The translations under genes and the position numbers were made by a program. Source: an uncultured Verrucomicrobiota bacterium (GTDB lineage Bacteria > Verrucomicrobiota > Kiritimatiellia > CAIVKH01). From it: DNA of 64,000 bases. The stretch lies in NCBI GenBank assembly GCA_937996795.1, contig CALKUH010000038.1, positions 31,516 through 95,515 of the forward strand, in the 5' to 3' direction. This document shows, in pieces, positions 4,641 to 62,629 of this stretch. The first letter of the stretch is position 1. Every line of letters starts with the position of its first letter. The notes under the pieces are model-generated. The model saw only the letters and a program-made list of their open reading frames with translations, searched no databases and was not told the DNA's origin.

Positions 4641-7337
4641 ATGAAGCTTCGCACGTGGATGGTGGCAGGGATCGCGGGTTGGGTTTCGCTGGCGCAGGCC
4701 ACGGAAGTCGAGGTGCGGCACAGTCCGCTGTATCCGTCGATCGACGACGTGATTCACATCGAAATTCGCGGCGCGCCGCAGGGCGGCGTGTTGCACTGGG
4801 GTGTCAACGCGGTCGGCGTCTTCTGGGAGGAGGCGATTCCCGCGTATCGCCCCGAGGGCTCGGAGCAGGACGGCGTCGCGACGCGTACGCGCCTGCAGGG
4901 ACCCGACGAGAACGGCGTGTACCACGCGAAGCTCGGGCCGTTCAACGACACGAACCAGTTGATCCGCGCGCTCAACTTCGCGCTGCAATGGGACGACGGC
5001 CACTGGTCGAACAAGGACGAGAAGAACTACAACATCCCCGTCTCCTTCGGCCGCATCACGACGGACCCCGAGCGCCCCACGATCAATGACCGCGTTGTCG
5101 TGAAGGTCCGCAACAGCCGGCCCGGCGGTGAACTGCGCTGGGGTGTGAACGCGGAAAACGACATGTGGAAGCCGCCGCTGAAGGCCTACTGGCCCGCCGG
5201 CACCGTGCCCGCGCGCGACGGGCTCGCGGTGGACTCGCCGCTCGGCAAGCCCGATTCCAACGGCGTCTCCACCGCCATCCTCGGCCCGTTCAACCGCGCG
5301 GAACAGGTCATCCACACCCTGCACATGGCCGTGCATTGGGGCGACGACTGGGATACCGACGCGGGCCGCAACTACAACGTCGACCTCTCGTTCGAAACCG
5401 GAACCAACGCGCCCGCCGTGCGCATCCTCTCGCCGGAAGATGACAGCGTGATCGTGGACGCACCCCAGGTGGAGTTGCGCGCGGACCGCGCCGATCAGGT
5501 GGAATTGCGGCTGAACGGCCGCGTCATCGCATCCGTCGCTGAAACGCCGCTGGAACTCCGCCTGCCGTTCCAACAACTGCAGTTCGGCCGCCACCAGCTC
5601 ACCGCGCACGCGGAGCGCGACGGCCTCGTCGCGATCCAGCAGATCTCCTTCTGGAAGCTCCCGCCGCACCGCGTGGAATCCATCCCGCCCGGCACGCCGT
5701 GGGGCGCGACCGACAACAAGGACGGCACGGTGACTTTCGCGCTGCACGCGCCGGAAAAACGATTCGTCTCCATCATGGGCGACTTCAACGGCTGGGACCC
5801 GTTCGCCGACATGATGAACTATTCACCCGACGGCACGTGGTGGCTCACGCGCCCGGTGTCGAACGGCGTGTGGCAGTACCAGTACGCCATCGAAGGCCGC
5901 CGCTTCCTCGCCGACCCCTACTCGCACGACGTCGAATGGAAGGATGAGCAGGGCCGCGAAGGCTACCAGCCGTGGGACGCGCGCACGGTGCTGCGCGTCG
6001 GCCAGCCGGAATTCGTCTGGACCGCGACAAACTACGTGCGCCCGCCGCTCGACCAACTCGTCATCTACGAACTGCACGTCCAGGACATGCAGCCCGGCGG
6101 CGGCTTCACCGGCCTCATCAGCCGCCTCGACTACATCCGCGACCTCGGCTTCAACGCCATCGGCCCGATGCCGTGGACCGAGTTCTCCTCCGACCAGAGC
6201 TGGGGCTACAACCCCGCGTTTCACTTCGCGCCGGAGTCGTCCTACGGCACGCCGGATGACCTCAAGCGCCTGATCGACGAATCGCACAAGCGCGGCATGG
6301 CGGTGATCTTCGACGCGGTGCTCAACCACATGGACCGCAGCGGCCCGCTCTTCCAGCTCTACGGCCACGACTACGACGCGAGCCCGTATTTCCGCCTGTT
6401 CCGCGGCGAGAACTGGGGCTTCCCCGACATCGACCAGCGCTCGCGCGCGGTCAAGCGCTACATGCAGGACGTCATCACGCACTGGCACAAGGAATACCGC
6501 GTCGACGGCATCCGCTACGACGCCACGCGCTTCGTCGAGTGGGAGGGCTACAACGACTGGGGCGCGGGCTGGATGGCGTGGGCCGGGCGCCAGGCCGACC
6601 CGACGTCGTACCAGATCGCCGAGCACATGCCGTCCGACCCCGCGCTGATCAACCAGACGGAGATGGACACGACGTGGGGCGACTTCTTCCGCTGGAACCT
6701 GCGCGGCATGATCGAGGAGGCGCGGCTCGACCGCAACCAGTTCGCCGACCTGATGATGCCCACGCGCATCGGCTACACCAGCGCGTTGCAGCGCATCGCC
6801 TACACCGAGAGCCACGACGAGGAACGCGTGATGCGCGAGTTGAAGCTCAAGAAATTCCCGCCCGCCGAGGCGCGCCGCCGCGCGGAACTCGCGTATGCGA
6901 TGACCCTGCTCGCGCCCGGCCCCGCGATGATCTACGCGGGCCAGGAAATCGGCGAGGACACGAAAAAGGTGGTCGGCCTGAATCCGATCCAGTGGCAGCG
7001 CACCGAGGGCTGGTTCAATCGCGAAAACCGGCGCCTGCTTGAATCCGCGCGCGCGCTCACCCGCCTGCGCACCACGCACTCCGCCCTGCGCGGCGAATGG
7101 CTGAACATCCACGAGAACACACCCGACGCCGTTGTCGTGCTCGACCGCACCGGCAACAACGGGTCCGTGCTCGGCGCCGGCAACTTCGGCCGCACCACAC
7201 AGCGCGTGACCATCTCGCTGCCCCACCCCGGCCCGTGGCGCGCCATCCTCGACGGCCGCGGCATCTCGCCGCGCGATGGCAAGGCGACCCTCACCCTCGC
7301 CCCCGGCGAGGTGGCCGTCTTCGCGGCGGGGGAATAG
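4641..7337 (+). CDS. Secreted GH13 alpha-amylase-family glycoside hydrolase with CBM48 and two N-terminal duplicated modules.
   Basis: Signal peptide MKLRTWMVAGIAGWVSLAQA. Two ~115-aa internal repeats (…HWGVNA…NYN…SFG / …RWGVNA…NYNVDLSFE). CBM48/E-set block (GDFNGWDP…YQYAIEG). GH13 conserved regions (VIYELHV, GFNAIGPMP, GIRYDATRF, EHMPSD, YTESHDE). Confidence 0.8.
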   Translation: MKLRTWMVAGIAGWVSLAQATEVEVRHSPLYPSIDDVIHIEIRGAPQGGVLHWGVNAVGVFWEEAIPAYRPEGSEQDGVATRTRLQGPDENGVYHAKLGPFNDTNQLIRALNFALQWDDGHWSNKDEKNYNIPVSFGRITTDPERPTINDRVVVKVRNSRPGGELRWGVNAENDMWKPPLKAYWPAGTVPARDGLAVDSPLGKPDSNGVSTAILGPFNRAEQVIHTLHMAVHWGDDWDTDAGRNYNVDLSFETGTNAPAVRILSPEDDSVIVDAPQVELRADRADQVELRLNGRVIASVAETPLELRLPFQQLQFGRHQLTAHAERDGLVAIQQISFWKLPPHRVESIPPGTPWGATDNKDGTVTFALHAPEKRFVSIMGDFNGWDPFADMMNYSPDGTWWLTRPVSNGVWQYQYAIEGRRFLADPYSHDVEWKDEQGREGYQPWDARTVLRVGQPEFVWTATNYVRPPLDQLVIYELHVQDMQPGGGFTGLISRLDYIRDLGFNAIGPMPWTEFSSDQSWGYNPAFHFAPESSYGTPDDLKRLIDESHKRGMAVIFDAVLNHMDRSGPLFQLYGHDYDASPYFRLFRGENWGFPDIDQRSRAVKRYMQDVITHWHKEYRVDGIRYDATRFVEWEGYNDWGAGWMAWAGRQADPTSYQIAEHMPSDPALINQTEMDTTWGDFFRWNLRGMIEEARLDRNQFADLMMPTRIGYTSALQRIAYTESHDEERVMRELKLKKFPPAEARRRAELAYAMTLLAPGPAMIYAGQEIGEDTKKVVGLNPIQWQRTEGWFNRENRRLLESARALTRLRTTHSALRGEWLNIHENTPDAVVVLDRTGNNGSVLGAGNFGRTTQRVTISLPHPGPWRAILDGRGISPRDGKATLTLAPGEVAVFAAGE

Positions 7338-7348
7338 CAAGGGGAGGA

Positions 7349-7408
7349 AGGTGTCGGGTTTCGGGTGTCGGGGAAGAGGTGATGGAGCTTCCCGACACCT
7401 GACACCCT
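7349..7408 (+). repeat. REP-like GC-rich hairpin element immediately downstream of the GH13 gene stop. A second copy is at 58788-58837.
   Basis: ggtgtcgggtttcgggtgtcggggaag-aggtgatggagctt-cccgacacctgacaccc. It shares 17 nt, TCCCGACACCTGACACC, with the other copy. Confidence 0.55.
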
Positions 7409-7622
7409 CCGCTCACTTCCTGGCCGTCTGTCTTGTCCGCCACAACCTTGGCGAAGGCGGAAAATTACAGACGTTGCAGGCGCCCCAGACCGTTTTTACA
7501 GACGTTGCAAATATTTCAAATTCGCAGAATGTCCGAATGTATCCGTTACATTCGCCTCACATCAGGAGTACGTTGATTCCTTCAGCCAATTTGTAATTTT
7601 ATCAATTACTGGCGGGGGATAC

Positions 7623-11397: not shown

Positions 11398-11453
11398 GGT
11401 GACCCGTGACCAGTAATCAGTGACCGGTCACTGATTACTGGTCACAGGTCACC
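11398..11453. terminator. 56-bp palindrome with a 40-bp perfect core (gtgaccagtaatcagtgacc|ggtcactgattactggtcac). It fills the gap between convergent genes and is a putative bidirectional terminator or protein-binding site.
   Basis: Arms 11406-11425 and 11426-11445 are exact reverse complements with no loop. They are flanked by further GTGACC/GGTCAC hexamers. There is no U-tract on either side. Confidence 0.5.
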
Positions 11454-17837: not shown

Positions 17838-17840
17838 GAG

Positions 17841-17978
17841 TTTACCACGGAGACACGGAGCACTCGGAGAGTACAACCACGAATAGACACGAATGCACAC
17901 AACTCATAAAGCATACGGATTCGTGTTCATTCGTGATTCGTTTCTTCTCCGCGTCCTCCGTGCCTCCGTGGTGAATTT
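17841..17978. repeat. ~135-bp compound imperfect palindrome that fills the convergent EamA/murJ intergenic gap.
   Basis: The outer arms (accacggagacacggagcactcggagag and its near-reverse-complement ctc..ctccgtgcctccgtggt) and the inner arms (cacgaatagacacgaatgc and gattcgtgttcattcgtgattcg) surround a ~18-nt loop. The region is AT-richer than its surroundings. Confidence 0.5.
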
Positions 17979-19649
17979 TTACTTCGCGACGCGGCGGCGC
18001 AGGGCGTCGCGGGCGAAGCCGAGTTCGGGGGCGCGCAGCGCGAGGGCGGCGCCGAAGTAAGCGGCGATGCCGGTCGCGATGGCGAGCAGGACGGATCCGA
18101 CTTCAACCAGTTTGGCTGGCGCACCGGACTGCGCGAGGCCCGCTGCCAGCGCGGGACGGACGGCGAGCAGGATCACCGCCATTACGGCGGAGCACGCCAG
18201 CGCACGCGACGCCGCCGCAAACACCGGACGCCACTCCAGCGCGCCGAGACGCCGCTGGAGCAGGACGCCGAGCGTGATGCCGTTGACGCCCTCCGACAAC
18301 ACCGTCGCGAACGCGAGCCCGGCGTGTTTCAGGTCGTGCGGCCACGTCAGCACGAACGCCACGTTCAATGCAAAATTCAGCGCGACCGCGCGCAGCCCGA
18401 TGCGGAACGGCGTGCGCGTGTCCTGCAATGCGTAGAAGGCGGGCACAAACACCTTCGCGAGGCAGAACACCATCAGGCCCGGCGCGTAGAATTGCAGCGC
18501 GATGGCGGTGTGCGACACGGCGGCGGCGTCGAACCGGCCCCATCCGAAAATCATCTGCACGATCGGCTCCGCCAGCACGAGCAGGCCGATGGACGCGGGG
18601 ATCATCACGAACAGCAGCGTGCGCAGCGAATGACCCAGTGTCTGGCGCATCTCCGCGTGGTCGCCGCGCGCCGCGTGCCCGGAAAACACCGGCAGCAGCA
18701 CCGTGCTCATCGCCGTGGCGAGCAGGCCCTGCGGGAAATACAGCAGGCGCTCGGCGTAAAACAGCGACGCGGGCGCCCACTCCGCGGCCCAGCGCGCGAG
18801 CAGCGTGTTGACCATCACATTAACCTGCGTCACCGACTGGCCCAACGCGGTGGGGCCCATCAGCGTGAATACGCGCCGGACGCGCGCATCCGACGTATCC
18901 CACGTGAACCCCGGCCGGAACCCGCGCCGCATCAGCGCCGGCACCTGCACACCCATCTGCACGAGGCCCGCGACGAAGACGGCCGCCGCGATGCCGTAGA
19001 TCTGCTGCTCCGGCGTGTCGCCAAGACGCGGGCAAACCAGCAGCACGAACCCGATCCACACCATGTTCAGCAGGCTCGGCGTGAACGCGGGCAGCGAGAA
19101 CTGGTGGCACGCGTTGAGCATCGCCATGAACAGGCCCGCGAGGCAGATGAACACCACGTACGGCAACATCACGCGCATCAGCGGCAGCAGGTGCGGCGCG
19201 CGCTCCGCGAGGTCGGGGTTCAACCCTTCGAGGGCAAAGGTCCCGAGGATGAGGAGGAGGACGAGGAGCGAGAGGAAGGCCGCCACGAGCGTCACGGTCT
19301 TGCGCGCGACGAGCCACGCGGAGGCATCGCCCTCCTCGCGCCGGGTCGCCATGAACACGGGCACGAAAGCCGACGACAAGGCCCCCTCGCCGAAGAGGGC
19401 GCGGAAGAGGTTGGGCAGGCGGAACGCGACGACGAAGTCCGACATCACCGCGCTGGTGCCGAAGAGGCTCGCGGTCAGCGTGTCACGCACCAGCCCGAGC
19501 ACGCGGCTCAGCGACGTAAAGCTGCCAACCTTGAAGGCCGAGCGGATGACGCGGTTTTTCTCCACAGAGCGCTGGATGATGCCGGGAAGCGCACGGGAAC
19601 GGAAGCCCGATTCCAAAACCCGCCCGATCCGGCGGGTGACGCAACTCAA
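17979..19649 (-). CDS. murJ: Lipid II flippase MurJ/MviN.
   Basis: LSRVLGLVRDTLTASLFG…FVVAFRLPNLFRALFGEGALSSAFVPVF, with 14 TM helices. The exact start is uncertain. Confidence 0.8.
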   Translation of the reverse strand: MSCVTRRIGRVLESGFRSRALPGIIQRSVEKNRVIRSAFKVGSFTSLSRVLGLVRDTLTASLFGTSAVMSDFVVAFRLPNLFRALFGEGALSSAFVPVFMATRREEGDASAWLVARKTVTLVAAFLSLLVLLLILGTFALEGLNPDLAERAPHLLPLMRVMLPYVVFICLAGLFMAMLNACHQFSLPAFTPSLLNMVWIGFVLLVCPRLGDTPEQQIYGIAAAVFVAGLVQMGVQVPALMRRGFRPGFTWDTSDARVRRVFTLMGPTALGQSVTQVNVMVNTLLARWAAEWAPASLFYAERLLYFPQGLLATAMSTVLLPVFSGHAARGDHAEMRQTLGHSLRTLLFVMIPASIGLLVLAEPIVQMIFGWGRFDAAAVSHTAIALQFYAPGLMVFCLAKVFVPAFYALQDTRTPFRIGLRAVALNFALNVAFVLTWPHDLKHAGLAFATVLSEGVNGITLGVLLQRRLGALEWRPVFAAASRALACSAVMAVILLAVRPALAAGLAQSGAPAKLVEVGSVLLAIATGIAAYFGAALALRAPELGFARDALRRRVAK

Positions 19650-23103: not shown

Positions 23104-23156
23104 ATTCGGGAACTTGGGACTTGGAACTTGCGCCGCGCGGCGAATACTGGTTGTTG

Positions 23157-32330: not shown

Positions 32331-32417
32331 AGGTCCGTCCTCGTCCTTGTCGTCGTCCTCGCCCTCGACAACCGGATCACGAGGAGGAGAACGAGGACGA
32401 CGACGGGGACGAATGGC

Positions 32418-34303: not shown

Positions 34304-34344
34304 GGGGGATTGCGGATTTGGATTGCGAATTGCGGATTGCGGAT

Positions 34345-36879: not shown

Positions 36880-37009
36880 GGGTCAGGTGTGCAACGTCTG
36901 TTCCGCCGGAGGCGGACCCGCCTCTGGCGGGAAAAACTTTCAAGGTCTGTAAAAACTTTTCGGGGCGCTTGCAACGCCTGTAATTTACAGACGCTGCAAA
37001 ACGCCCGCC

Positions 37010-45730: not shown

Positions 45731-45969
45731 TCGCAAGCCGAAAGCGCACACGTACACGTTCTCGTTCGCGTGCACGAAGCATCGCGAACGGGAACGTGAG
45801 ACGTGAACGGGTGGGAATCAAGAAAACCCCGCGAAACCGCTTGCAACCGCGGGGGGGTGCCGGTAGCTTTGCGCCATGTTTTCGCTGCAACTGACTTTGT
45901 CCGCGCGCCGCCCGGCGACCGTTTGATGGTCCGCCCGATCATGCCTGCGCGCCTTTCCCCCCTCTCCGT

Positions 45970-55644: not shown

Positions 55645-56097
55645 ATGCTAACCAGCAAAACCAAATACGCGTTGATCGCCTTGCAGACCCTGGCGAGGGC
55701 GCGGCGGGATGAACCGGTGCTGATTGCCCGGATCGCGGAAGAGGAGTCGATTCCGCGTAAATTTCTCGAGCGGATCCTGCTGGAGCTGAAGGCGCGCGGC
55801 GTGCTGCGCAGCCAGAAGGGAAAAGGCGGCGGCTACTCCCTCGCCCGCGCCCCCGACGAGATCCCGCTGGCGGATATCGTCCGCTGGATGGACGGCCCGC
55901 TCGCGCCGGTTTCCTGTGTCAGCCAGACGGCCTATGCGCCGTGCCGCGAGTGCCGCAACGAGGCGTGTTGCGGGATTCGCTCCGTGATGAAGGAGGTCCG
56001 CGACGCGATCGCCGACATCCTCGGAGCCACGACGGTGGCGGATCTGGTGCGCCGCGGGCAGGACACCCGGCGGCAGGAATTAACCTACGATATTTGA
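55645..56097 (+). CDS. Rrf2-family transcriptional regulator (IscR/CymR-like).
   Basis: MLTSKTKYALIALQTLAR… wHTH, with conserved Cys residues (C..C…CC). Confidence 0.8.
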   Translation: MLTSKTKYALIALQTLARARRDEPVLIARIAEEESIPRKFLERILLELKARGVLRSQKGKGGGYSLARAPDEIPLADIVRWMDGPLAPVSCVSQTAYAPCRECRNEACCGIRSVMKEVRDAIADILGATTVADLVRRGQDTRRQELTYDI

Positions 56098-56281: not shown

Positions 56282-56398
56282 CGCCGGACCGGCGGGGCCG
56301 TCCGCACAGGCGGAGGCCTTCAACAAACAAAAAAAAGAAGAGGTGGAGCGCTGACCGGATCACCGGAAGTCACCACAGGAAACTGAGGAGACAATCCG

Positions 56399-57763
56399 AT
56401 GAACAGACAGCAATACGGTTGGCTGCTGGCCCTGGGCGGGCTGGTGTGGTGGACGGCAAACACAGGGGTTCGCGCGGAAACGGCGGACCCGAAATGGCAG
56501 GAGTTGGATCAGAAAGTGCGCATCCTGGAACGAAAACTGGAACTGGCGGACGAAGCCGCGGCGGCGAAGGCGAAAGAAACCCCCACCCTGTCGGCAGGGC
56601 CGGGCGGATTCTCCCTCGCGTCAGCCGACAAGGCGTTCTCGTTGCGGCTGCGCGGGTTCGTACAGGCGGATGGACGCGTGTATGCGGATGACGAAGGGGA
56701 CCGCCTCTCGGACACCTTCCTGCTCCGGCGCGCGCGCATCATTCTCGACGCGCAATTGGGCAAACACTTCGCCGCACGCATCGCCCCGGACTTCGGCGGA
56801 GGACAATCGCAATTGCAGGACGCCTACGTGGATTTCAAGGGCTCCGACGCCCTGAACCTCCGCGTGGGCCGCACGAAGGTCCCGCTGGGGCTTGAACGCC
56901 TGCAATCCTCGACCGAGCGCCTCTTCAACGAAACGGCGCTCGTCACGGCCCTCACGCCAAATCGCGACGAAGGCATCCTGCTTTACGGCGCGCTCGGCAA
57001 GGGCGTGCTGGAGTACCATCTCGGCGCCTTCAACGGCGGCCCGGATGGCGCGAGCATCGACAGCGACACGAACGACGAGTTCGATCTCGCGGCGCGCGTC
57101 TGGCTGACGCCGTTCAAACACAGCGACGCGGAAGCCCTCCAGGGGTTGAGCTTCGGGCTTGCCGGCACGGTGGGCGAGCAATCGGGCACGACGAATGCGC
57201 CGGGCCTTCCCACCTACCGCACCACGGGGCAGAACACGTTCTTCAGCTACCGGACCTCGACCAACGCCGCCGACACCGCGGTGGCCGACGGCGACCGCAC
57301 GCGCATCGCCCCGCAGGTTTACTATGCGGTGGGCCCGTGGAGCCTGCACGGCGAGTACATCATCTCGGAACAGGACGTCGGCAATGGATCAGGTTCCGCC
57401 AGCCTCGAACAGGAAGCCTGGCAGCTCGCCACGTCCTGGGTGCTGACGGGGGAAAAACCTTCGCTGAAGGGCGTCTCGCCTGCGAAGCCATTCGATCCCG
57501 CCAAGGGGCAATGGGGCGCGTTCGAGTTAAAGGCGCGCGTCGGCGAATTGTCGATTGATGACGCCGCGTTCGAGGGCGGCTATGCGCAAGCCACGCGCTC
57601 GGCCCGGTCGGCGGAAGCGGTGGGCGGCGGTTTGAACTGGTACCTGACCCGCAACGCCAAACTCTCCCTTGATTACGAGCAGACGACCTTCGACGGCGGC
57701 GCGGCCGACGGGGATCGTCCGGATGAAAAAATCGTCATCGCGCGCGCCCAGGTAAGTTTCTAA
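56399..57763 (+). CDS. Phosphate-selective porin O/P-family outer-membrane anion porin.
   Basis: Signal peptide, an N-terminal coiled-coil, then a beta-barrel with a C-terminal Phe (…ARAQVSF). Confidence 0.7.
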   Translation: MNRQQYGWLLALGGLVWWTANTGVRAETADPKWQELDQKVRILERKLELADEAAAAKAKETPTLSAGPGGFSLASADKAFSLRLRGFVQADGRVYADDEGDRLSDTFLLRRARIILDAQLGKHFAARIAPDFGGGQSQLQDAYVDFKGSDALNLRVGRTKVPLGLERLQSSTERLFNETALVTALTPNRDEGILLYGALGKGVLEYHLGAFNGGPDGASIDSDTNDEFDLAARVWLTPFKHSDAEALQGLSFGLAGTVGEQSGTTNAPGLPTYRTTGQNTFFSYRTSTNAADTAVADGDRTRIAPQVYYAVGPWSLHGEYIISEQDVGNGSGSASLEQEAWQLATSWVLTGEKPSLKGVSPAKPFDPAKGQWGAFELKARVGELSIDDAAFEGGYAQATRSARSAEAVGGGLNWYLTRNAKLSLDYEQTTFDGGAADGDRPDEKIVIARAQVSF

Positions 57764-57784: not shown

Positions 57785-58777
57785 ATGAAACGATTCATCA
57801 CCGCATTACTCATCGGAACGGCCACCCTGGCCGTCGCCGCACCCAAACCGGTCACCCTGCTCAACGTGTCCTACGATCCGACGCGGGAATTCTACGTGGA
57901 CTTCAACGCGGCGTTCGCTCGGCACTGGGAGACGACGACCGGTCAGAAGGTCACGATCAAGCAATCGCATGGCGGCTCGGGCAAGCAGGCGCGGTCGGTC
58001 ATCGACGGGCTGCCGGCGGACCTGGTCACCCTCGCCCTCGCGTATGACATCGACGCGATCAGCGAGAAGGCGAAGTTGATTCCGGCCAGCTGGCAAAGCC
58101 GCCTGCCGCACAACAGCTCGCCATACTTCTCCACCATTGTGTTCCTTGTCCGCAAAGGGAACCCGAAGGAGATCAAGGATTGGGACGACCTCGTGAAACC
58201 GGGCATTTCCGTGATCACGCCGAATCCGAAAACCTCGGGCGGCGCGCGGTGGAACTACCTCGCCGCCTGGGAATTCGCGAAACGCCGGAACGGCGGCGAT
58301 GAAAGCAAGGCCCGCGAATTCGTGTCCGCACTCTTCAAAAACGTGCCGGTGCTGGACTCCGGCGCGCGCGGCGCCACCACGACCTTCGTGCAGCGCGAAA
58401 TCGGCGACGTGTTCCTCTCCTGGGAAAACGAGGCGTTCCTCGCGCTCAAGGAGTTCGGCGCCGACAAGCTCGAGATCGTCGTTCCCTCCATCAGCATCCT
58501 CGCCGAACCCCCGGTGACGGTCATCGACAAAGTGGTCGATCGACGCGGCACCCGCGCCGTGGCGGAGGCCTACCTCAACTTCCTCTACAGCGAGGAAGGC
58601 CAGGACCTCGCGGGCAAACATTTCTACCGCCCGCGCCTGCCGGCGGCCGCGCAGAAATACGCGACCCAGTTCGCCGACGTGGCGCTCTTCACGATTGACG
58701 AAGCGTTCGGCGGTTGGAAACAGGCGCAGGAAACGCATTTCAGCGACGGAGGCGTGTTCGACCAGATTTACAAGTAA
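57785..58777 (+). CDS. sbp: Sulfate/thiosulfate ABC transporter substrate-binding protein.
   Basis: Signal peptide, then [13 protein letters not shown]…[12 protein letters not shown]…. Confidence 0.85.
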
Positions 58778-58787
58778 GTTGAAGAGG

Positions 58788-58837
58788 GTTTCAGGTGTCA
58801 GGGAGGAGCGCTCCCGACACCTGACACCTGACACCCG
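58788..58837 (+). repeat. REP-like GC-rich hairpin element, lying between the sbp and cysT genes. A second copy is at 7349-7408.
   Basis: ggtttcaggtgtcagggag-gagcg-ctcccgacacctgacacctgacaccc. It shares GGGTTTC.RGGTGTC.RGGGA.G and TCCCGACACCTGACACC with the 7349-7408 copy. Confidence 0.55.
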
Positions 58838-58843
58838 GCCACC

Positions 58844-59665
58844 ATGAACCCTTCCCGCAAAACCAACGTCCTGCCCGGCTTCGGCCTCTCGATGGGCTTC
58901 ACGATCACGTACCTGTGCTTGATCGTGTTGATCCCGTTGTCGGCGGCGTTTCTCAAGACCGCCACGATGGGCTGGCCGGCGTTCTGGGAGGCGATCAGCG
59001 CACCGCGCGTGCTCGCGTCGTACCGGTTGAGTTTCGGCGTTTCGGCCATCGCCGCGCTGGTCAACGGCGTCTTCGGATTCATCGTCGCGTGGGTCCTCGC
59101 GCGCTACACGTTTCCGGCGAAGAAACTGGTCGATGCATTTGTCGATCTCCCCTTTGCGCTGCCGACCGCGGTGGCGGGCATCGCCCTGACGGCGATCTAT
59201 GCGGAGAACGGATGGATCGGCTCGCTGCTCGCGCCGCTGGGGATCAAGGTTGCGTTCAAGCCGCTGGGCATCGGGATCGCGCTCATCTTCATCGGCCTGC
59301 CCTTCGTCGTGCGCACGTTGCAGCCGATCATCGAGGATCTCGACGCCGACGTGGAGGAGGCGGCGGCAAGCCTCGGCGCGACGCGCGCGCAGACGTTCTT
59401 CCGCGTGGTGCTGCCGGCGGTGCTTCCCGCCTGGCTCACGGGCGTCGCGATGGCGTTCGCGCGGGCGGTCGGCGAATTCGGCTCGGTGGTGTTCATCTCC
59501 GGCAACATGCCGATGAAGACCGAGATCACCCCATTGCTCATCATCACCAAGCTGGAGCAATACGACTACGCCGGCGCGACGGCGCTGGCTGTCGTCATGC
59601 TGGTGGCGTCATTCGCGCTGCTCCTGTTGATCAACCTGCTGCAGGCGTGGAGCGCGCGGAGGTAA
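58844..59665 (+). CDS. cysT: Sulfate ABC transporter permease CysT.
   Basis: EAA-loop region and 6 TM helices. The order is sbp-cysT-cysW-cysA. Confidence 0.85.
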
Positions 59666-59667
59666 CC

Positions 59668-60555
59668 ATGGCCGGCATCGTCTCCAGACTCTCGCATCGC
59701 GGGGCCCGGCGTCCCGGCACCACGGATCCGGCGTGGGTGCGCTGGGCGCTTACGGCGACCGCGCTGCTGTTCCTCGCCGTGATGCTGTTTGTGCCGCTGG
59801 TCGCGGTGTTCGCCGAGGCGCTGCGCAAGGGGGTCGCGGCGTACCTGGAATCCTTCGGCGATCCCGACGCGCTGGCGGCCATCCGCCTCACGCTGCTGAC
59901 CGCCGCCATCGCCGTGCCCGCGAACGTGGTCTTCGGCGTCGCTGCGGCGTGGGCCATCGCGAAATTCGAGTTCCGCGGGAAGAACGTGCTGATCACGCTG
60001 ATCGACCTGCCCTTCGCGGTGTCGCCCGTCGTGTCGGGCCTGATCTACGTACTCGTCTTCGGCGCGCAGGGCTGGCTCGGGCCCTGGCTGATGGAGCACG
60101 ACATCACGATCATCTTTGCCGTTCCGGGCATCGTCCTGGCCACGGTTTTCGTGACCTTCCCCTTCGTCGCGCGCGAGCTGATCCCACTGATGCAGGCCCA
60201 GGGCACCGAGGAGGAGGAGTCCGCGATCGTGCTCGGCGCAAACGGCTGGCAGACCTTCTGGAACGTCACGCTGCCGAACATCAAGTGGGGCCTGCTCTAC
60301 GGCGTGATCCTCTGCAACGCGCGCGCGATGGGCGAATTCGGCGCGGTCTCGGTGGTGTCGGGCCACATCCGCGGCATGACCAACACCATCCCGCTGCACG
60401 TGGAGATCCTCTACAACGAATACCAGTTCGTCGCCGCGTTCGCGGTGGCCTCGCTGCTGGCCCTGCTGGCCCTGCTGACGCTCGGCATCAAGAATATCGT
60501 GGAATGGCGCGCGCACACGGCGCTGTCCGCCGAAACGAAACCGGAGTCCCCATGA
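59668..60555 (+). CDS. cysW: Sulfate ABC transporter permease CysW.
   Basis: Start at MAGIVSRL (ATG 59668), 2 nt after the cysT stop. The upstream part of the track ORF is rejected. Confidence 0.85.
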
Positions 60556-61559
60556 GCATCGAAGTCCAACACATCACCAAGCGATTCGGCTCGTTTACCG
60601 CGCTGGACGACGTCTCCGTGCGCTTCCCGTCCGGCCAGCTCGTCGGCCTGCTCGGGCCGTCGGGTTCGGGCAAGACCACGCTGCTCCGCATCATCGCGGG
60701 CCTCGAGCGCGCGGACAGCGGCAGCGTGCTGTTCGAGGGCGAGGACGCCACACAGCGGAGCGCGCGCGACCGGCGCGTCGGGTTCGTGTTCCAGCACTAC
60801 GCCCTCTTCCGCCACATGACGGTGTTCGACAACGTCGCGTTCGGGCTGCGGGTGAAGCCGCGCGCCATCCGCCCGTCCGAGGCGGAAATCCGCGAGCGCG
60901 TGATGAAGCTGCTCGGCCTCGTGCAACTCGACTGGCTCGCCGACCGCCTCCCCTCGCAGCTCTCCGGCGGCCAGCGCCAGCGCGTCGCCCTCGCCCGCGC
61001 GCTCGCGGTGGAACCCAAGGTGCTCCTGCTCGACGAACCGTTCGGCGCGCTGGACGCGAAGGTCCGGAAGGAACTGCGCCGCTGGCTCCGCCGCCTGCAC
61101 GACGAAATCCATGTGACCAGCCTGTTCGTGACGCACGACGTCGAGGAGGCGCTGGAGGTTTCGGACCAGGTCGTCGTGATGAACAACGCCCGGATCGAAC
61201 AAATCGGCACGCCGGACGAGGTCTACGAACACCCCGCCTCCCCGTTCGTGTACGACTTCCTCGGCAGCACGAACCGGTTCACCGCCGCGCCCCGGGACGG
61301 CGCCGTCGCCTTTTCGCGACCGCACGACATCGAAATCAGCCGCAGCCGCGACCACGCGGACGCCATCCCCGCGCGCGTCACCCACCTGCACGCCATCGGC
61401 CCGATCGTCCGCGTGGAGCTGTCCGACATCGCCAGCGGCCAGCCCATCGAGGCGGAACTCTCCAAACAGCGCTTCCGCGAACTCGCCCTGCGCGAAGGCG
61501 AAACCGTCCATGTCCACACCCGAAACGCGCGCGTTTTCGTGGAGGACTATTCGATCTAA
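60552..61559 (+). CDS. cysA: Sulfate/thiosulfate import ATP-binding protein CysA.
   Basis: Walker [29 protein letters not shown], and a C-terminal TOBE/MOP domain. ATGA overlap with cysW. Confidence 0.9.

Positions 61560-61669: not shown

Positions 61670-62629
<960 letters not shown>

Follow-up and report, generated by a model that had tools for sequence, protein, structure and literature searches.

A palindrome of heptanucleotide repeats between sbp and cysT of an uncultured Verrucomicrobiota bacterium belongs to a hairpin family found in several phyla

The sulfate transport genes on contig CALKUH010000038.1 (assembly GCA_937996795.1) of an uncultured Verrucomicrobiota bacterium are closely spaced except at one junction. 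In the stretch analysed here (64,000 nt, G+C content 66.8%; hereafter the window), the spacers of the cluster are 21 nt (porin-sbp) and 3 nt (cysT-cysW), cysW and cysA overlap, and the sbp-cysT spacer is exceptional with 66 nt. This spacer holds a hairpin. What is this element, and what does it do between the gene of a sulfate-binding protein and that of its permease? We conclude with high confidence that it is an intercistronic palindrome whose arms are short tandem heptanucleotide arrays, (GGTKTCR)n, an apical stem-loop and (YGACACC)n. With the same high confidence it is one copy of a multi-copy family, and several other phyla have the same GGTGTCR hairpin. We class the element as a palindromic heptanucleotide simple sequence repeat (SSR) hairpin, which combines the intercistronic protective hairpin with the intergenic heptamer repeat.

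The helix occupies positions 58786-58836 of the plus strand, 8 nt past the sbp stop codon (TAA, 58775-58777) and 7 nt ahead of the cysT ATG (58844-58846). Its 5′ arm (58786-58800) consists of two heptad units, GGGTTTCA and GGTGTCA, recognised in the sequence, as inverted repeat I20 and in the folds. The apical stem-loop GGGAG-GAGCG-CTCCC (58801-58815) was taken from the minimum free energy (MFE) structure. The 3′ arm (58816-58836) reads GACACC, TGACACC, TGACACC and a final C, so that the arm formula is (GGTKTCR)2, apical stem-loop, (YGACACC)3. Tandem Repeats Finder reported 58816-58835 as an array of period 7 with 2.9 copies and 100% match (unit TGACACC). A sequence-only reading of this DNA had already placed a hairpin here, starting at 58788, 11 nt past the stop. 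The hairpin is real, at -31 to -33 kcal/mol, and its helix starts at 58786. Folded in an 81-nt context its MFE was -32.7 kcal/mol (z = -3.3; 0 of 200 shuffles equalled it), and folded alone -31.0 kcal/mol (z = -5.05). That reading had also described an extra unit, CCTGACACC; this 9-mer overlaps its neighbour by 2 nt, and the true unit is the heptamer TGACACC.

The third 3′ unit has no partner in the 5′ arm and thus creates two near-isoenergetic pairing registers. The 5′ arm pairs with 3′ units 1-2 in the context MFE structure and with units 2-3 in the isolated fold and the centroid, with an energy gap of less than 2 kcal/mol. TGA triplets of the 3′ arm lie at 58822 and 58829. Every TGACACC unit includes a TGA, and because 7 is not a multiple of 3, three units would place stops in all three frames; this may make such arrays more tolerable at gene ends. 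The helix is followed by a 7-nt linker, GGCCACC, and the cysT ATG (58837-58846). The "RBS region" earlier assigned to cysT was not found: no recognisable Shine-Dalgarno sequence precedes the gene (ACCTGACACCCGGCCACCATG), in the window or in the three related lineages with a hairpin at this junction (L004, L005 and L007). GGAG-type motifs precede porin, sbp, cysW, cysA and cysK. CysT homologues align from residue 1.

A second copy (copy 1) is located on the plus strand at 7350-7407, 12 nt past the stop of a GH13 gene (7337). It reads GGTGTCG GGTTTCG GGTGTCG GGGAAG, an 11-nt loop, and CTTCCC GACACC TGACACC C. The 17-nt core that the two copies had been said to share is exact (TCCCGACACCTGACACC, at 58812-58828 and 7390-7406), and both have an imperfect GGTTTC unit in the 5′ arm. 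Tandem Repeats Finder detected the 5′ arm of copy 1 (7350-7372) with period 7, 3.3 copies and 87% match. Counted with at most one mismatch, GACACCTGACACC occurs 4 times in the window against 0.08 expected. The window thus holds two hairpin copies, and the relative AMR_MDS_0145 has at least three copies of the exact family pattern described below; that relative's other copies (L024 and L066) are orthologous to nothing in the window.

The sbp-cysT hairpin has the characters of three known classes to different degrees. As a heptanucleotide SSR it has head-to-tail 7-nt units, copy-number polymorphism at a fixed locus and a preference for intergenic sites. As a hairpin of the malE-malF type it is stable, lacks a U-tract, and lies in the spacer after a binding-protein gene of a polycistronic operon. 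The term "REP-like" (repetitive extragenic palindromic) of the sequence-only reading holds for a repeated intercistronic palindrome after a binding-protein gene; the hairpin at 58786-58836, in its 66-nt spacer, is an extragenic imperfect palindrome like the REPs (~20-40 nt). It does not hold for the family that is mobilised by REP-associated tyrosine transposases (RAYT), given the heptamer arms and the absence of the GTAG tag. No GTAG/CGTC tag was present at either window copy (feet GAAGA/GGGTTTC and GGAA/GGTGTC), and across 84 family members the foot is usually YAGGTGTC, GTAG being merely occasional.

Other classes were rejected. The hairpin resembles an intrinsic terminator, except that the tails CGGCCACCAUG and UCCGCUCAC contain no U-tract and the terminator scan was empty there. 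The ends GGGTTTCAGG and CCTGACACCC lack the RYYYAAC/GTTRRRY cores of an integron attC site, and the flanks are a conserved sulfate-transport operon and not a cassette context. Rfam gave no match in the whole window at gathering thresholds, and around the hairpin only matches with scores far under those thresholds (E ≥ 0.1), mostly to eukaryotic microRNA models. Neither GACACCTGACACC nor its complement was found in any paper searched, and the literature search for REP-type repeats in these phyla returned nothing relevant. A 2025 cross-kingdom survey of short tandem repeats makes no mention of heptamers or these phyla. We could not find a description of the cross-phylum distribution of this heptamer palindrome.

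The orthologous site was compared in relatives. Contigs L001-L003, from metagenomes, have an identical spacer of 66 nt with two 5′ and three 3′ units (2/3 form), as has L169 (Sbp 99% identical). In L168 (also Sbp 99%) the 3′ arm has two units, one fewer, and the spacer is 59 nt (2/2 form), which bears out the earlier suggestion that the unit is iterable. L004 (Sbp 90%) has a 2/2 form in which the apical stem-loop differs by a single loop-side substitution. L005, which is also L074 and belongs to the Kiritimatiellia metagenome-assembled genome (MAG) AMR_MDS_0145 (Sbp 86%), keeps the stem-loop in a 3/3 form of -46.9 kcal/mol. The arms gain and lose whole units, presumably by replication slippage as the simplest mechanism. 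In L007 (Sbp 88%) the same place is taken by a hairpin of another heptad, the CAGTNAT type (CAGTCAT CAGTATT CAGTGAT ... CTGATGA CTGATTA CTGACAA CTGACCA; -30 kcal/mol). Each of the four lineages that make up the immediate clade (window, L004, L005 and L007) thus has a hairpin at this position, and the sbp-cysT site is kept occupied.

Between the window and L005, 64 of 66 aligned spacer positions are identical, while fourfold-degenerate sites are 63% (sbp) and 70% (cysT) identical (Fisher p = 2e-8). The differences in the spacer are mainly whole-unit indels, and elsewhere in the cluster spacer identity is 54-86%. L007 has diverged to the same extent at fourfold sites (64-68%), yet it carries the replacement hairpin. 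Since the spacer is conserved above the fourfold sites, its sequence is held, either by selection or by a homogenising mechanism.

To describe the family, the exact pattern GGTGTCNGGG-N(4-34)-CCCGACACCTGACACC, with 25 specified bases, was searched in GTDB representative genomes. By our own rough estimate, 0.03 matches would be expected by chance in 596 Gb. The pattern was found in 77 stretches: 33 from Gemmatimonadota, 20 from Acidobacteriota, 14 from Planctomycetota, 3 from Kiritimatiellia, 4 Desulfobacterota-like, and 1 each from Armatimonadota, Actinomycetota and Terricaulis. All but one or two share this architecture and have arms of 2-6 units, with the unit logo G99 G100 T95 G88 T83/C15 C96 R. 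The host contigs range from 41% to 73% G+C, so the family is not a compositional artefact. Outside the seeds, the same 539 kb contain 35 further arrays of GGTGTC-like units, besides 49 arrays built from different units, among which GGAGTGC/GGAATGC stand out. The heptad GGAGTGC is frequent in the Gemmatimonadales loci L009, L070 and L071 as well. No exact match was found when 2.9 million viral contigs were scanned, and a phage origin was rejected accordingly. The recurrence across phyla could be due to horizontal spread, or to convergence driven by a bias in mutation or in function.

Individual MAGs have 3-5 exact matches, and in two MAGs the copies share conserved flanks, as in a dispersed element. 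In one Planctomycetota MAG (L023, L032, L033, L053 and L083) the arrays are contained in longer dispersed repeats of ~130-150 nt, and likewise in one Thermoanaerobaculia MAG (L020, L035, L046, L063 and L084). The conserved flanks of these repeats are not heptads and give them the look of miniature inverted-repeat transposable elements or REP-type repeats.

The gene context of 80 family hairpins was taken from crude gene calls based on G+C content at third codon positions, and 47 hairpins could be classified: 35 between co-directional, 10 between convergent and 2 between divergent genes. Divergent spacers are depleted, whether 13% of pairs (p = 0.04) or 20% of spacer length (p = 0.002) is taken as the expectation. 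In co-directional pairs the median distance was 8 nt from stop to hairpin and 24 nt from hairpin to next start. With 8 nt and 7 nt, the sbp-cysT hairpin is therefore a typical member. A TAG stop often overlaps the hairpin foot (e.g. TAGGTGTC); with these gene calls the enrichment was marginal (16/33 against a background of 33%, p = 0.04). Genes for tandem MacB/FtsX-type permease paralogues, for ABC ATPases and for histidine kinases often adjoin the hairpins. No transposase family was enriched among the 461 neighbouring open reading frames (ORFs) of the 77 loci.

What the hairpin does at sbp-cysT was approached by analogy. The proposal, for and against which the case is about evenly balanced, is that it is transcribed as part of the porin-sbp-cysTWA mRNA and uncouples sbp from cysTWA. 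A helix of roughly -32 kcal/mol would form in this mRNA 8 nt past the sbp stop. The scan found neither a promoter nor a canonical terminator at the junction. As there is no U-tract and the 7 nt before the ATG leave no room for a promoter, RNA polymerase would read through the hairpin into cysTWA. Two effects could follow. The helix could serve as a barrier to 3′-to-5′ exonucleases or as a processing site for a double-strand RNase, and the porin-sbp segment would outlive the downstream segment, as in the malE-malF paradigm. In addition, the 3′ arm, in or beside the ribosome landing zone of the Shine-Dalgarno-less cysT start, could keep permease translation low. The number of 3′-arm units would set the length of single-stranded RNA ahead of the ATG, and slippage could therefore tune the sbp:cysTWA ratio.

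Uncoupling is suggested by two precedents. In each of five E. coli ABC operons, the stabilised cistron is that of the binding protein, which usually ends at a hairpin, and 26 of 34 stabilised 5′ segments of E. coli end at a hairpin (Dar & Sorek 2018, PMC5927463). In the 5′ untranslated region (UTR) of H. influenzae hmw1A, one arm of a hairpin is a heptamer array; RNase III cleaves this hairpin, and the number of units sets the level of expression (PMC12721329). Unrelated sbp-cysT loci, too, often have hairpins behind the binding-protein gene. The kept position, the conserved spacer, the missing Shine-Dalgarno sequence of cysT and the family's preference for sites between co-directional genes also speak for the proposal, as does the predicted energy for opening positions -18 to +12 of the cysT start: 6.9 kcal/mol in the window, where the third unit is unpaired, 20.1 kcal/mol in L004 and L005 (2/2 and 3/3 forms) and 11.2 kcal/mol in L007. 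With no U-tract, no room for a promoter and no Shine-Dalgarno sequence, the parallel with malE-REP-malF drawn by the sequence-only reading is plausible, and as to role it is partly supported. If uncoupling is true, ratio-setting intercistronic hairpins of transporter operons, known from enterobacteria, would extend to the Planctomycetes-Verrucomicrobia-Chlamydiae (PVC) superphylum. Ratio-setting would also be linked to palindromes of slippage-prone 7-nt units, whose length changes between strains could tune expression heritably. The function of heptamer repeats is an old question, and the GGTGTCR family supplies many natural alleles for it.

Several observations weigh against uncoupling. The named, more distant Kiritimatiellia relative L170 (Sbp 75%) manages with a 6-nt spacer and no hairpin; L171 (Sbp 78%) has neither an adjacent cysT nor a hairpin. 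Among 43 diverse sbp-cysT loci, ~40% have spacers of 0-30 nt without a hairpin. Many of the remaining spacers carry ordinary GC hairpins, some with U-tracts, and heptad arms are restricted to the present clade. Other heptad hairpins turn over fast in the same genomes. In L165, a near-identical genome (GH13 99%), copy 1 has just one 3′ unit and its loop differs, and unrelated ordinary hairpins stand at its site in L166 (80%) and L167 (77%). In the cysH-cysD spacer, a (CGGAAAA)n hairpin is strong in L005 and decayed in L004, and the window's genome (L001) lacks it. The contrast in predicted opening energy hinges on the interval chosen and on thermodynamic folding alone. Furthermore, Liang, Rudd and Deutscher reportedly found in 2015 that E. 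coli REPs within ~15 nt of a stop lower upstream expression through ribosome stalling; stalling of this type would oppose an excess of Sbp.

The level at which the palindrome is constrained also counts against an RNA helix as its object. Among the 35 co-directional cases, the MFE was better on the sense strand in 15 and on the antisense strand in 20 (Wilcoxon p = 0.97), and the sbp-cysT hairpin itself gave -32.4 (sense) against -33.5 (antisense). Compensation in mirrored units was mostly lacking (A.C 15, G.C 12, G.U 9, A.U 6), a test weakened by the ambiguous pairing register of periodic arms; the uncompensated variants fall at the polymorphic R/Y position and at internal positions. The marks of selection for RNA pairing on the sense strand, namely G.U tolerated, A.C avoided and compensatory changes, were thus not seen. 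Pairing is maintained because both arms keep to one consensus unit. Conservation of the unit dominates over pairing, and the evidence points to a constraint on the unit, or to a mechanism that generates it.

Much of this would be expected if the hairpin were a neutral or selfish repeat, which is possible, if somewhat unlikely. The palindrome would then be a by-product of heptamer slippage and arm-to-arm copying, or a mobile palindrome of a kind not yet recognised, tolerated without being of use. Its consensus would be kept through the generating mechanism or by conversion from other copies. Unit number is polymorphic between 99%-identical strains, copy 1 varies among near-identical genomes and is missing from relatives with 77-80% identity, and the cysH-cysD hairpin shows the same fate in the strong, decayed and absent states just described. 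Strand asymmetry is absent, compensation is scant, and more distant relatives without the hairpin manage with a 0-6-nt spacer. In addition, some MAGs contain many copies with conserved flanks that look like dispersed elements, and array density is very high in several genomes. However, an identity of 64/66 against 63-70% at fourfold sites requires an active homogenising or selective force, and the site is occupied in four lineages, in L007 by a replacement hairpin of another unit. The family is also depleted in divergent (promoter) spacers, and no mobilising gene was found among the neighbours of the 77 loci.

A broader reading is unlikely, and it would cover the family as a whole. The GGTGTCR/YGACACC palindromes would be a sequence-constrained element of at least five phyla that either has a conserved trans-acting factor as its reader or spreads through a mobile mechanism not yet recognised; unit slippage would act as a heritable rheostat for the expression ratio of adjacent cistrons. 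A heptad-binding protein or a double-strand RNase would be the candidate factor. If true, the predicted cost of opening the cysT start would be 20 kcal/mol with 2 units at sbp-cysT and 7 kcal/mol with 3.

It is distinctly improbable that the hairpin is a partial terminator (attenuator), which would stop a fraction of RNA polymerases after sbp and so lower the amount of cysTWA mRNA. A stable GC-rich helix does stand right after the stop codon, the family prefers gene 3′ ends and convergent pairs and avoids divergent spacers, and several unrelated sbp-cysT spacers contain canonical hairpin-plus-U terminators (e.g. L156, L108 and L089). Yet both window copies lack a U-tract behind the helix (GACACCCGGCCACC; GACACCCTCCGC), and a scan for consensus terminators was empty there. 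Most members lie between tight co-directional genes with the next start at a median of 24 nt, where a strong terminator would be harmful.

We give a similarly low probability to a binding array for a protein that reads the heptad at the DNA or RNA level, with the palindrome as a secondary feature. The reader could be a nucleoid or IHF/HU-like protein, as suggested for the Geobacter heptamer pairs, or else a single-strand binder of the cold-shock or S1 type, as suggested for the TAACTGA repeats. This would account for unit sequence being conserved rather than pairing, with variants rarely compensated, and for one unit across phyla in contexts from 41% to 73% G+C; hypotheses of this kind have been published for related repeats (PMC2700814; PMC4679880). 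However, this reading lacks a known candidate protein, and a period of 7 bp does not keep phase with the DNA helix. Moreover, the hairpins are found within operons and at the ends of genes and not at promoters. The pairing of inverted arrays is a rule of the family, which a simple binding array would not need.

A true REP mobilised by a RAYT (a Y1 transposase), as in enterobacteria and pseudomonads, is disfavoured as very improbable: the hairpin is an extragenic imperfect palindrome, multi-copy and transcribed inside operons, and relatives encode Y1_Tnp proteins, but its arms are SSR arrays without the GTAG/CGTC tag, its unit is common to several phyla whereas REPs are species-specific, the RAYT-like gene of L166 is flanked by the unrelated GGAGTGCGGCGGCTTGACGC, and no transposase was enriched beside the 77 loci. 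REP/RAYT membership was rejected on these grounds. No RAYT gene flanked by heptad hairpins was found among the neighbouring ORFs, whole genomes being outside that search. The gene of L166, a Kiritimatiellia relative, encodes a Y1_Tnp (RAYT/IS200-like) protein of 201 aa and lies between exact inverted 20-mers (5048-5067 and 5660-5679), which show no relation to the heptad hairpin and do not occur in the window. From its sequence this arrangement looks like a genuine REP/RAYT.

The porin-sbp-cysTWA operon in which the hairpin would be transcribed belongs to a larger sulfate cluster. An Rrf2 regulator gene (55645-56097) lies near it, followed by a small DUF2292 ORF and, on the plus strand, a Porin O/P gene (56399-57763; Pfam Porin_O_P, E = 9.5e-35) that is probably cotranscribed with sbp. 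The sbp gene (57785-58777, plus strand) encodes a sulfate-binding protein of 330 aa (Pfam SBP_bac_11, E = 2e-37). An identical protein was found on metagenome contigs, and the closest named homologues, from Kiritimatiellia MAGs (86% and 75% identity), are annotated as sulfate ABC transporter substrate-binding protein. The tightly packed permease and ATPase genes cysT (58844-59665), cysW (59669-60555) and cysA (60554-61559) follow on the plus strand; they were assigned from Pfam BPD_transp_1, gene calls on the identical contig L001 and the sequence. A gene for a cysteine-synthase-like pyridoxal-phosphate enzyme is located at 61670-62629. The spacer upstream of the porin gene (56282-56398) is 82-86% identical to L005 and L007, well over the fourfold-site level. 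Within it are a GC hairpin, a stretch rich in A and the conserved segment CTGACCGGATCACCGGAAGTC, and the sulfate cluster may have a regulatory leader here.

The genome of L004/L165 differs from the window in this region. GH13 is 99% and CysT 100% identical, Sbp only 90-92%; at fourfold sites the identity is 90% in sbp and 98% in cysT. L004 has no DUF2292 or porin gene between Rrf2 and sbp. A local rearrangement or recombination separates L004 from the window here, and its downstream edge coincides with the hairpin.

Periodic arms are a general habit of the host genome and not peculiar to the GGTGTCR family. We conclude with high confidence that many intergenic hairpins of this genome, probably Kiritimatiellia, are assembled from tandem units of 6-8 nt; 5 of the 8 period-7 segments of the window are intergenic. 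A palindrome of 56 nt without a loop (11398-11453) is 96% complementary and consists of the heptads GGTGACC CGTGACC AGTAATC AGTGACC and their mirror. It lies 4 nt past the stop of a 1256-aa CBM6 gene and 5 nt from a convergent gene, with an MFE of -46.2 kcal/mol (z = -10), and is conserved in L165 at 18751-18806. Its units look like those of the L007 sbp-cysT hairpin. At 17838-17978, a compound hairpin of 141 nt (-70 kcal/mol) between convergent genes has outer arms of 8-nt period (CACGGAGA) and inner arms of 7/10-nt period (CACGAAT). At 45748-45806 lies a hexamer-periodic hairpin of the unit family ACGTKC / CGTTCA ... TGAACG, which recurs 3′ of cysN in L004 (19878-19957) and L005 (18664-18735), and thus after different genes than in the window. 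Inverted hexamer arrays, (CGTCCT)n and (ACGAGG)n, with 26-nt arms of 85% complementarity, occupy 32336-32412; the crude gene calls gave this segment no assignment, and it may be coding.

Direct arrays are also present. A (GGATTGC)n array at 34304-34344 fills an intercistronic spacer immediately 5′ of a minus-strand start codon, a (GGRACTT)3 array at 23109-23130 follows a stop and occupies the whole intercistronic spacer, and a (GGAAGAC)n array in L005 (17314-17340) fills the cysD-cysN spacer. These three resemble the published GGGGATT and TAACTGA arrays adjacent to start codons. A different kind of repeat is the 15-nt motif TTACAGACGTTGCAA, with 6 matches at up to 3 mismatches against 0.5 expected. 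It occurs as pairs ~30 nt apart in promoter-like spacers and is conserved in relatives (window 7465-7510 and 36889-36999; L004 17570-17661; L005 16281-16413; L166 12695-12856). It may be a promoter element or a regulator site.

The nearest known system in position is the REP, or bacterial interspersed mosaic element (BIME), of the malE-malF spacer in E. coli and Salmonella, reportedly described by Newbury et al. in 1987. The sbp-cysT hairpin is likewise a stable extragenic palindrome right 3′ of a binding-protein gene, inside an operon, without a U-tract, and a member of a repeated family; the outcome expected from this type is binding protein in excess over permease. Unlike that REP, it has arms of variable-number heptamers, no GTAG tag and no RAYT link, its unit is cross-phylum, and it stands alone and not in a BIME-type cluster; its role here would follow by analogy. 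With Rho-independent terminators it shares a GC-rich hairpin just past a stop, and its family is depleted in divergent spacers; it differs from them in the missing U-tract and in downstream genes that need read-through.

Heptanucleotide SSRs are the nearest relatives of its arms. As cited in later papers (PMC4679880 and PMC4692102), Mrazek (2007) found heptamers to be the most abundant class of long SSRs in many prokaryotes and ascribed the excess to the length of DNA held by the polymerase. The short tandemly repeated repetitive (STRR) sequences of cyanobacteria are heptanucleotide repeats (Mazel 1990, as cited in PMC4692102). TAACTGA arrays stand beside start codons in Beggiatoaceae, Cyanobacteria and Bacteroidetes (PMC4679880). 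A GGGGATT array lies in the pecE-pecF spacer of Nostoc, and GGGAATC arrays of Xanthomonas, some of them inverted pairs, keep their position and vary in length between species (PMC4692102). The present arrays likewise have a 7-nt unit, are intergenic and often intercistronic or near starts, show a patchy distribution over several phyla, and vary in length among close relatives with position kept. Known heptanucleotide SSRs are mainly direct arrays, whereas here the inverted pair is the rule, with 2-6 units and a different unit.

A further set of paired arrays was described in one genome only, that of Geobacter metallireducens. Its multi-copy "class 3" elements are paired sites of five tandem MTYCTGA units, one pair lying between proB and proA, and were interpreted by the authors as binding sites of IHF/HU-like global regulators (Aklujkar et al. 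2009, PMC2700814). We read these pairs as inverted, since the layout of the published figure switches strand. They share with the present family the paired CTGA-containing heptamer arrays, the intercistronic position and the multi-copy state, and differ in the unit. When the units are rotated (CACCTGA in the window, NNACTGA in L007), a CTGA core is common to them, TAACTGA and MTYCTGA.

The closest parallel for a variable arm is hmw1A (Rapun-Araiz et al. 2025, PMC12721329), where slippage alters the copy number of the heptamer and thereby sets expression, and RNase III cuts the hairpin. That array differs from sbp-cysT in lying in the 5′-UTR of a single adhesin gene, with one repetitive arm, an AT-rich unit and more than 10 units, and it is not dispersed. 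In both, a heptamer SSR forms an arm of a long hairpin, transcribed in hmw1A and, as proposed, at sbp-cysT.

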